Assembly: GCA_964016885.1 (NCBI GenBank)
Contig: OZ024747.1
Coordinates: 85,622,001 to 85,686,000, forward strand
Direction: 5' to 3'
DNA: 64,000 bases
Source: Eledone cirrhosa
Lineage: Eukaryota
In this document: one piece after another, positions 19,789 through 59,073 of the stretch
How the letters are laid out: each line of letters opens with the position of its first letter
Numbering within the stretch: position 1 is the first letter of the stretch
Program-made: the position numbers and the translations under genes
The notes under the pieces: generated by a model
Databases searched by the model: none
The model's input: the letters and a program-made list of their open reading frames with translations, nothing else
What the model was told of the DNA's origin: nothing

Positions 19789-20302
19789 ATGTCCAACCAA
19801 ACAAGAAACGACGATGGTTGTAATACCATGTCTGATGACTACTACTACAACTACAATTACAACAACCACAACAATTACAATGACACTAATGACCCCAGTC
19901 CAGCTTATATGATGCCACCACCAACACCACCGCCACCTCCGTCGCCACCACCACCACAGATTACTACGTCAACGACGCTAAATTGTCGCACATCATCATC
20001 ACCAACAACAGCAACCACCACAACAAATAATAATAATAACAATAATAATAATTCGAACACTACTAGCAACGTGTGTCGTGCTATAGGACGGGGCAGATGT
20101 TGCCGCGACAGTTGCAGCCAAAGATGCCGTGGATGGAAGATAGAAGAACCAGGTGGACCGAAACTCTGGAGACAAATGGTCATCGGGTTTGTGAGTGCCG
20201 CCTGTGTTGGACTTATAATGTTCTCGTTAGGGAGTATCTTTATATCTGAGGCAGTTAGGTCGCGAATATCTATCACTATTATGCTCTGTATCATGGGAAT
20301 GG
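19789..20302 (+). CDS. Probable first coding exon of an unidentified membrane protein (low-complexity N-terminus, then two hydrophobic helices; DC-STAMP/DCST-like is only a guess)
   Basis: AAAAATG start, 514-nt open frame in unique CpG-containing sequence with N/P/T homopolymers and a Cys cluster. Hydrophobic segments MVIGFVSAACVGLIMFSLGSIFI and ISITIMLCIMGMG, then a strong donor G|GTGAGT at 20303. No downstream exon identified. Confidence 0.7.
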
Positions 20303-29299: not shown

Positions 29300-29499
29300 N
29301 NNNNNNNNNNNNNNNNNNNNNNNNNNNNNNNNNNNNNNNNNNNNNNNNNNNNNNNNNNNNNNNNNNNNNNNNNNNNNNNNNNNNNNNNNNNNNNNNNNNN
29401 NNNNNNNNNNNNNNNNNNNNNNNNNNNNNNNNNNNNNNNNNNNNNNNNNNNNNNNNNNNNNNNNNNNNNNNNNNNNNNNNNNNNNNNNNNNNNNNNNNN
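29300..29499. other. Assembly gap (200 N)
   Basis: Run of n characters. Confidence 1.
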
Positions 29500-35427: not shown

Positions 35428-35934
35428 AGGATGAATATAAAATGAAAGTGCTTTTGTTAAAAAAGGAATTTATTAGGTATTGACATATGTTTCTGTAACA
35501 GACCGAATACCTATGTATCGCTGCTTGCGTAATCATATAATGTTAGCAAGTATTCGATAGCAAATGTATAATCAGTTGTCACTTCTTCAGAGATTTTGGA
35601 TAAACCTGCACGTACGCTGTTCATCTCTAACGTAACGATATATTATCACTACATTATTGATAACCTGAAATTTTATATATATATATATATATATATATGT
35701 CTGATGGTAGCTAAGATGGTTCCATAGGCGATATGCCAGTTGAGCACTCTATGTTCTTACAGAGCAGAGTATGATATAATAGAAAACGAAAAATCAGTGA
35801 TGCATCAGGGTTTATTTCAAGGTACCAAAAGTTTGTTTTATAAATATTGAGATCTTAACGGTTCAAGTTTTTCCTGGATAGTCAGGAAAAACTTGAACCG
35901 TTAAGATATGTCAATATTTATAAAACAGACTTTG

Positions 35935-35995
35935 TATTTTATCTGATGAGAGCATACCAAAGTTTTGGTGCCCTTGAAATATATATAATAGAATA
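35935..35995 (+). ncRNA. Minimal type-I hammerhead ribozyme candidate (PLE-type)
   Basis: Stem I TATTTTAT/ATAGAATA, core CTGATGA (35943), stem II around GCA-ACCAAA/TTTGGTGC, GAAA (35976), 2-bp stem III with palindromic ATAT loop, AUA cleavage triplet. Confidence 0.65.
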
Positions 35996-36161
35996 AATGT
36001 GGTTTTATAAATATAGTTTCCATTTATTAATATCATTGATATTATACTCCAGAAAACTTGTCGAGTGCTTTGAATCAGTTATAAATATATATATTTGTTG
36101 AATTACCAACAAATTAAATATCCCTTTTGCTTCATCATCATTCATATATATATATGCATAT

Positions 36162-36412
36162 ATAGGAAAATGTTTGACCCTGACGGCAGAGCTCAAGCCG
36201 TTTCAACGGCTATTTCTGGACTAAATTAGAATTTTTAGCGTGGTAATTTACCACGCTAAAAATTCTAATTTAGTCCAGAAATAGCCGTCGAAGTGGCTTG
36301 AGCTCTGCCGTCAGGGTCAAACATTTTCCTATTACCCACTCTACTACCCTAAGTATTGAGTACTCTGGTGCGTTATGGTCCATCTGGTTCCTTACCACAC
36401 CTCCTTCGTTAT
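36162..36412 (+). mobile_element. Fold-back element: 171-bp palindrome plus conserved tail (putative inverted PLE terminus)
   Basis: 85-bp arms, 1-nt loop at 36247, 3 mismatches. Tail TACCCACTCTACTACCCTAAGTATTGAGTAC... is shared with the 37553 element. Confidence 0.75.
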
Positions 36413-58731: not shown

Positions 58732-58914
58732 TACTTACATACATACATATATATATATATTTATATGCACAGGGAAAATGAAAGTTAAATGAAAGTTAAA
58801 TAAATATTGACATACCCTGAAAAAAGACAACCTTAACAGACTACCCAGGAAGCTCCAACCGTTAAGGTTGTCTTTTTTCAGGGTATGTCAATATTTATTT
58901 ATAAAACAAATCTG

Positions 58915-58980
58915 TATTTTATCTGATGAAAGCGCACCATAATTTGCCTTGGTTGCCCTTGAAATATATATAATAAAATA
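58915..58980 (+). ncRNA. Minimal type-I hammerhead ribozyme candidate (same family)
   Basis: Perfect stem I TATTTTAT/ATAAAATA, CTGATGA (58923), imperfect stem II, GAAA (58961), TATATATA stem III/loop, AUA cleavage triplet. Confidence 0.65.
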
Positions 58981-59073
58981 AATATGGTTTTATAAATATA
59001 GTTTCCATTTATTAATATATTGTAATATATATATATTTATATATACACATGGAAAATGAAGGTTAAATGGTGA

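Follow-up and report, generated by a model that had tools for sequence, protein, structure and literature searches.

A probable Hydra-clade Penelope-like element stub with a hammerhead ribozyme and an inverted partner in an intron of Eledone cirrhosa

Analysis of a 64,000-nt stretch of the Eledone cirrhosa genome (the window; GCA_964016885.1, contig OZ024747.1, positions 85,622,001 to 85,686,000, forward strand) indicates, with a probability of roughly 0.88, that a hammerhead-bearing hairpin within it arose when a Penelope-like element (PLE) of the Hydra clade inserted in 5'-truncated form with an inverted partner, likely through reverse transcriptase (RT)/GIY-YIG endonuclease (EN) that primed from each strand of a (TA)n target, and that its ribozyme is predicted to be inactive here. 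The copy consists of a pseudo-LTR (pLTR), the 5'-truncated 3' end of the element (35883-36132, plus strand, 250 bp), and an inverted partner pLTR copy that forms the left hairpin arm (35813-35882, minus strand; delimited by alignment to locus L016). By sequence comparison, it is the last 250 bp of an autonomous PLE.

The minimal type-I hammerhead (35935-35995, plus strand) comprises stem I (35935-35942 / 35988-35995; 8 bp including one U-G), CUGAUGA (35943-35949), stem II (35950-35975), GAAA (35976-35979), and stem III with its loop (35980-35986); the cleavage triplet is AUA and the predicted cut falls after 35987. Stem III has 2 bp and a palindromic AUAU loop, and the conserved core, three stems and NUH triplet are all present. 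A preliminary description made from the letters alone had named the CTGATGA box, stem II, GAAA and the cut site, each of which is found at its given position, and its identification of a minimal type-I hammerhead with a palindromic loop III is borne out by these parts, by a descriptor search and by the family alignment (see below). It had also called the ribozyme intact-looking, which holds for the core but not for stem II: in the window copy this has 3 bp, a C-C mismatch and a weakened distal stem, positions 35954 and 35970 depart from the family majority (differing from ~97% and ~99%, respectively, of family depth in public contigs), and the stem folds at -5.1 kcal/mol vs -9.3 kcal/mol in the commonest family type. 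A feature in two halves surrounds the hammerhead (35914-36013, plus strand), and both halves occur in 81/111 distinct copies. The sequence previously described as the tail is present where it was reported, but 36001-36033 is still pLTR body, its first half prolonging stem I; the optional PLE tail (36043-36132, plus strand, ~90 nt) lies between a short 3' end (~36033-36042) and a long 3' end. The window pLTR has a 13-nt deletion near its start and terminates at the long 3' end of the PLE family, and its ~90-nt tail is part of the 5' leader ahead of the open reading frame (ORF) in full-length tandem copies.

The hairpin palindrome spans 35828-35933, slightly longer than the inverted repeat first reported (35834-35876 / 35883-35927), with a predicted RNA fold of -61.1 kcal/mol (z -13.8). 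Its arms abut with no spacer and carry different deletions. From the left arm 15, 32 and 1 nt have been deleted internally, and the arm stops right after GAAAUA; the deletions took out CUGAUGA and thus account for the inverted stem II/GAAA piece noticed earlier near 35815, which is present at 35814-35830. The left arm stops early and abuts another repeat, the terminus of a third repeat family (35695-35806, minus strand; 2,440 candidates) that is joined directly to it and whose other copies are likewise a hairpin with a one-sided tail. Just downstream lies a further hairpin-plus-tail repeat (arms 36162-36244 / 36250-36332, tail to 36420; 2,459 candidates), the inverted partners of which end where its 88-nt tail starts, an anatomy like that of the PLE stubs; no hammerhead occurs in the part of this repeat seen, and neither neighbouring family could be tied to an ORF. 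This TA-rich cluster therefore holds three such stubs together. Any target-site duplication of the window copy is obscured because its flanks are other repeats and TA tracts. A second copy, from a related subfamily (58840-59024, plus strand; hammerhead core at 58923), has the short 3' end and its own short inverted arm (~58797-58838).

The genome (3.0 Gb, 1,796 contigs) was searched with 35883-36060, giving 2,560 first-look candidates, 40 of which were scored, and with a 31-nt pattern over the ribozyme 3' half, giving 22,135 exact matches (reversed control, 0). From 150 listed endonuclease matches, 20 ORF loci were chosen because their frames were long or their identity high; 14 of them have the pLTR on the EN ORF's strand, 1-2 kb downstream, and a pLTR piece occurs within 9 kb in all 20. 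The association with an RT and GIY-YIG ORF, and with it the PLE pLTR origin that had been proposed, is thereby borne out. At L014/L015 the pLTR sequence follows the GIY-YIG frame after a 1.2-kb A/T-rich UTR, near-full elements are present at 15 further loci (selected for long frames), and four tandem loci contain units running from hammerhead through ORF to hammerhead of 3,691-4,240 bp. The open frames upstream of the pLTR encode 612-743 aa with YRDD-type and GIY/YIG-type motifs, and the ORF ATG is ~190 nt past the predicted cut. Pfam returned no family for the element ORFs and a PDB sequence search no meaningful match, so RT and EN are identified by their motifs and by comparing the frames by eye with Hydra proteins in print.

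The Hydra clade is marked by RWK, DKT, a CxCX5C linker, absence of CCHH, CxxC, CxH, hammerheads and (TA)n targets, according to the excerpted text of Craig 2021 (PMC8557442). Among 16 long loci, DKT (as SDKTN) is found in 15, the CxCX5C linker in 12, and RWR or RWC, at the same N-terminal position, in 10; RWK is found in none. The best 120 of 887 homologues (32-43% identity) contain RW[K/R] in 97, DK[T/S] in 115, CxCX5C in 112 and DKG in 1. No cysteine pair (CCHH) lies in the interval from the GIY to the YIG motif in the ORFs examined, and their C-terminal ends show C.LC and CRH/CKH (CxxC, CxH). Shared with the clade as excerpted (PMC8557442) are the single ORF with RT and C-terminal GIY-YIG, DKT, CxCX5C, CxxC and CxH without CCHH (RW[K/R] being shared less clearly), the canonical hammerhead close to the 3' end, in which a U often precedes GAA, and (TA)n targets, an inverted 5'-truncated copy and a tail at one end. 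At their 3' ends copies enter TA tracts in most of the 30 loci taken in position order, and contig loose ends show the same; partial tandems, the inverted 5'-truncated copy and the one-sided tail are all seen, as in EN+ PLEs. The ORF is provisionally assigned to a Hydra-clade PLE by these motifs and by-eye comparison with published proteins. More divergent Hydra-type RT or GIY-YIG frames occur elsewhere in the genome (L064, L171, L175, L003).

The family also differs from listed members of the clade. Its hammerhead-to-hammerhead unit exceeds the length of <3 kb general for the clade, a descriptive trait (3.7-4.2 kb, with a 3' UTR >1 kb, vs 1.1-3.0 kb in the clade table; PMC8557442), its tail is ~90 nt rather than the 30-40 nt given for Hydra elements (PMC8557442), and its stem III closes A-U/U-A (triplet AUA), whereas the Hydra hammerheads in that list begin stem III with AC (PMC8557442). 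Hydra-1_Obim of Octopus bimaculoides is listed at 2,507 bp with a hammerhead (Craig 2021, PMC8557442); that hammerhead is unlike the one here in all three stems, and the protein is collinear yet clearly divergent by eye, so the window family is another family.

Variation was assessed in 100 distinct superfamily hammerheads from the examined loci. Each stem I pair is kept in 97-100 of these, and what variation there is comprises one-sided, wobble-compatible changes only. Stem II in the 86 bulge-free copies (14 bulged copies were set aside) consists of 3 bp followed by a C-Y mismatch and a distal stem, the last of which shows double-sided changes, including swaps of G-C with A-U and of U-A with C-G; 398/430 distal cells are paired, vs a mean of 346 and a maximum of 360 in shuffles, a control that ignores the relatedness of copies. 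Loop III reads ATAT in 66, ATGT in 20, GCGC in 8 and other sequences in 6, and these variants remain self-complementary, as the dimer model needs. The covariation anticipated across genomic copies is thus seen in stem II and loop III, and stem I contributes only its one-sided changes. Like the minimal PLE hammerheads of Cervera and de la Pena 2014 (PMC4209133, as excerpted), those of this family are type I with a short palindromic helix III and a predicted dimer, with many solitary copies and with opposite-strand pairs 100-700 bp apart; they differ in that stem I is longer, its 8 bp being prolonged by a 13-bp extension, and in most copies A-U or G-U replaces the usual G10.1-C11.1 pair (PMC4209133). 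Other hammerhead families, at L021, L066, L072, L160 and more, have the same stem I with a different stem II and loop III, among them a GCGC loop and short CTAGTA, CGCGTA and CCACTGGTA types, which suggests many ribozyme-bearing PLE families in the host genome.

The 3' ends of copies fall at two sites, ~55 and ~145 nt beyond the predicted cut, both TA-like and within the 5' leader of the tandem unit; an end at the cut itself was seen for 0/123 cores. In the first 30 pattern matches along contig C1, taken in position order, the direct copy has the long 3' end in 11 and the short in 19. An inverted piece that reaches an element end has the opposite end type in 14/14 of the cases among these 30 loci (11 short direct/long inverted, 3 long direct/short inverted); against a 50:50 null this gives 2^-13, ~1e-4 by hand, two of the 14 loci being one insertion. 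No inverted piece lies within ~500 bp in 13/30 loci, one that reaches no end is present in 3/30, and the downstream control for inverted pieces gave 2/30. Across all loci, 17/21 classifiable pairs are long plus short, and 5 more pairs are truncated. In 7/11 short-ended loci the inverted piece is tail only, a sequence lacking in the direct arm. The window copy speaks neither for nor against this end rule, its left arm breaking off before any 3' end.

The opposite ends of inverted partners fit two internal RT start sites. In the proposed origin, the element endonuclease would nick both strands of a TA tract, reverse transcription would begin at two internal sites of an RNA left uncut by the ribozyme, and the two short cDNAs would be joined head to head to yield a hairpin plus tail; one start site would be used per target strand, by analogy with the Poseidon element of Frangieh 2024 (PMC11167929). 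In the excerpted text of that paper two internal RT start sites define the tail and both strands are extended, and an inverted copy, a tail and two RT start sites are described there and by Craig 2021 (PMC8557442). Poseidon PAc of Anolis carolinensis shares with the window family two internal RT starts downstream of the hammerhead that define the tail, cutting and extension of both target strands, an uncleaved RNA template, and no ends at the cut (PMC11167929, in part). PAc belongs to a different clade, and its ORF starts inside the hammerhead with the start sites in the ORF (PMC11167929), whereas in the window family both lie in the 5' leader, before the ATG ~190 nt past the cut; the ends here are TA-like sites, and the PAc start sites are reported, in the text as excerpted, as non-homologous to the target (PMC11167929).

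A stricter form of this origin, held tentatively and at slightly less than even odds, is that a dimeric RT-endonuclease primes one cDNA per strand of the cut TA tract, with the long start site always serving one and the short start site the other on a single uncleaved RNA, the sites being 90 nt apart (twin priming), so that PLE integration would be recorded more cleanly than in any described family. Twin priming is known for L1. If true here, one rule would cover both the inverted arm and the one-sided tail in >22,000 copies.

The hairpin of the same element could instead arise by fold-back, with a truncated cDNA priming itself at a small stem-loop upstream of the ribozyme and copying itself. 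The abutting of the window arms without a spacer, the truncation of many copies at one place 80-90 nt upstream of the core (by eye) and the L019 junction, which is as expected of self-priming at that stem-loop, all agree with this. Yet the two window arms have different deletions, and self-copying cannot produce the tail-only inverted pieces of the 7/11 short-ended loci, which are absent from the direct arm; fold-back is thus an unlikely general explanation, possible for some junctions such as L019. The truncation site itself, ACTATCCAG, is common to many copies of different subfamilies (L126-L155), lies at the foot of the small stem-loop, and is likely an RT stop or template-switch hot spot.

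Both hammerhead copies of the window lie within a host gene. Exon 1 (19789-20302, plus strand) encodes part of an uncharacterised mollusc protein with a hydrophobic stretch; its 77 searched residues are identical to a predicted Octopus vulgaris protein that maps to exon 1 and to two further exons ~58 kb on, beyond the window. The gene (19789-20302; G000:C7:85700541-85701561) thus has three exons and encodes roughly 270-290 aa of uncharacterised function, and the protein is conserved in cephalopods, bivalves and gastropods, with C-terminal PPxY-like motifs besides the hydrophobic stretch; an ESM Atlas search with exon 1 gave no usable match. Intron 1 runs from 20303 past the window end and is ~58 kb long, a length that is approximate because of a 200-base N run at 29300-29499. 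This exon mapping places both copies sense-strand in intron 1, in agreement with the intronic sense position suggested in the preliminary description, exon 1 ending at 20302 and exon 2 lying ~58 kb on.

Folding was modelled at equilibrium, which ignores proteins and kinetics. The active monomer fold of the window copy has a probability of ~2e-5, and its stem I pairs with a probability of ~0.6 when the left arm is left out and of 0.0 when it is included, which predicts that the inverted arm ties up stem I; copy 2 (58923) is largely misfolded, with a stem I pairing of 0.05 in context. A modelled dimer is ~4 kcal/mol better than two monomers, yet ~4 kcal/mol above the cofold minimum. Since the antisense left arm is transcribed first, we infer that the pre-mRNA holds the ribozyme shut. 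The parent element's hammerhead would be a weak cutter, acting as a dimer via the palindromic stem III or aided by the element's protein, and in the window copy the two stem II changes together with the left arm would prevent the ribozyme fold. The preliminary description of a self-cleaving RNA-based mobile element therefore stands as to PLE origin and falls as to a working mobile RNA at this locus: the window copy is probably a dead, 5'-truncated stub with a ribozyme predicted to be sequestered.

It is quite unlikely that the window copy serves as an active or co-opted ribozyme cleaving the host pre-mRNA, possibly dimerised with the copy on the same strand 23 kb downstream. In favour of this, the core nucleotides are all intact, the two copies lie sense-strand in intron 1 and have a stem III palindrome in common, and a dimer of copies 1 and 2 is modelled at -19.2 kcal/mol; against this are the near-absent stem I pairing of both copies in context, the decay of the window stem II relative to the family, and published minimal PLE hammerheads, which cut poorly even when dimerised or require the element's protein. 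In the excerpted text of Cervera and de la Pena 2014 (PMC4209133) a Schistosoma PLE hammerhead is inactive as a monomer and of low activity as a dimer, and in that of Frangieh 2024 (PMC11167929) ribozyme cleavage requires protein and is not required for insertion. A-to-I editing of the template RNA, hinted at by three A>G changes in the window copy, was ruled out from rare substitutions in 83 copies (A>G 41 vs T>C 41). On the sense strand of the element, rare A>T changes (43) are commoner than T>A (23), which may be due to the alignment close to TA tracts.

A non-autonomous retrozyme, in which tandem hammerheads would release a small RNA and close it into a circle, is a very unlikely identity for the unit, although mollusc retrozymes have been described (PMC7229834, in part) and metazoan non-LTR retrozymes share with this family a type-I hammerhead, low GC and high copy number (PMC7229834), here as many short copies of ~250 bp. 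Among the first 100 matches, 17/24 neighbouring pairs <=4.5 kb apart are head-to-head and only 5/24 same-strand, no core of the 123 ends at the cut site, and the sequence upstream runs on into the 1.2-kb 3' UTR and PLE ORF. Metazoan retrozymes are non-coding tandem repeats of 170-400 nt expressed as circles (PMC7229834), whereas the window family is autonomous and dispersed, with its own ORF and tandem units of 3.7-4.2 kb, and the retrozyme affiliation allowed for in the preliminary description is accordingly dropped.

A chance hammerhead-like motif beside a MITE-like inverted repeat, for which the AT-rich context and the absence of any hammerhead family among 97 Rfam matches at E<=1 (all microRNA-type, on hairpins and microsatellites, under gathering scores, so that the Rfam match looked for was missing) might speak, is extremely unlikely and is refuted by the ORF linkage; a type-I hammerhead descriptor has 2 matches in the 64-kb window (35943, 58923) vs a mean of 0.01 (maximum 1) in 100 local dinucleotide shuffles, the family shows covariation, and the arms copy an internal region head to head and are not terminal repeats.

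Already published are hammerheads in PLE pLTRs, Octopus members of the Hydra clade, inverted copies, tails on one side and a pair of RT starts. In the literature covered (Penelope and Hydra-clade elements, hammerheads, octopus transposable elements and, as listings, twin priming) neither the window family nor the opposite-end rule as twin priming is described. A 2026 O. vulgaris repeat paper (PMC13282606) reports 31 recently active Penelope-like families, with Hydra and ribozymes unmentioned in its excerpted text, and Repbase or that paper's library may already contain the window family. The single window locus is likely an ordinary, inactive insertion. In this family one hammerhead exists in tens of thousands of natural variants, whose stem II and loop III covary. 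The strict opposite-end rule is relevant to the formation of tandem and inverted PLE ends and to the purpose of the ribozyme, both called unclear in Craig 2021 (PMC8557442, in part). The findings suggest that PLE stubs may make up a sizeable fraction of short hairpins in octopus introns and, if so, would be sources of double-stranded RNA.
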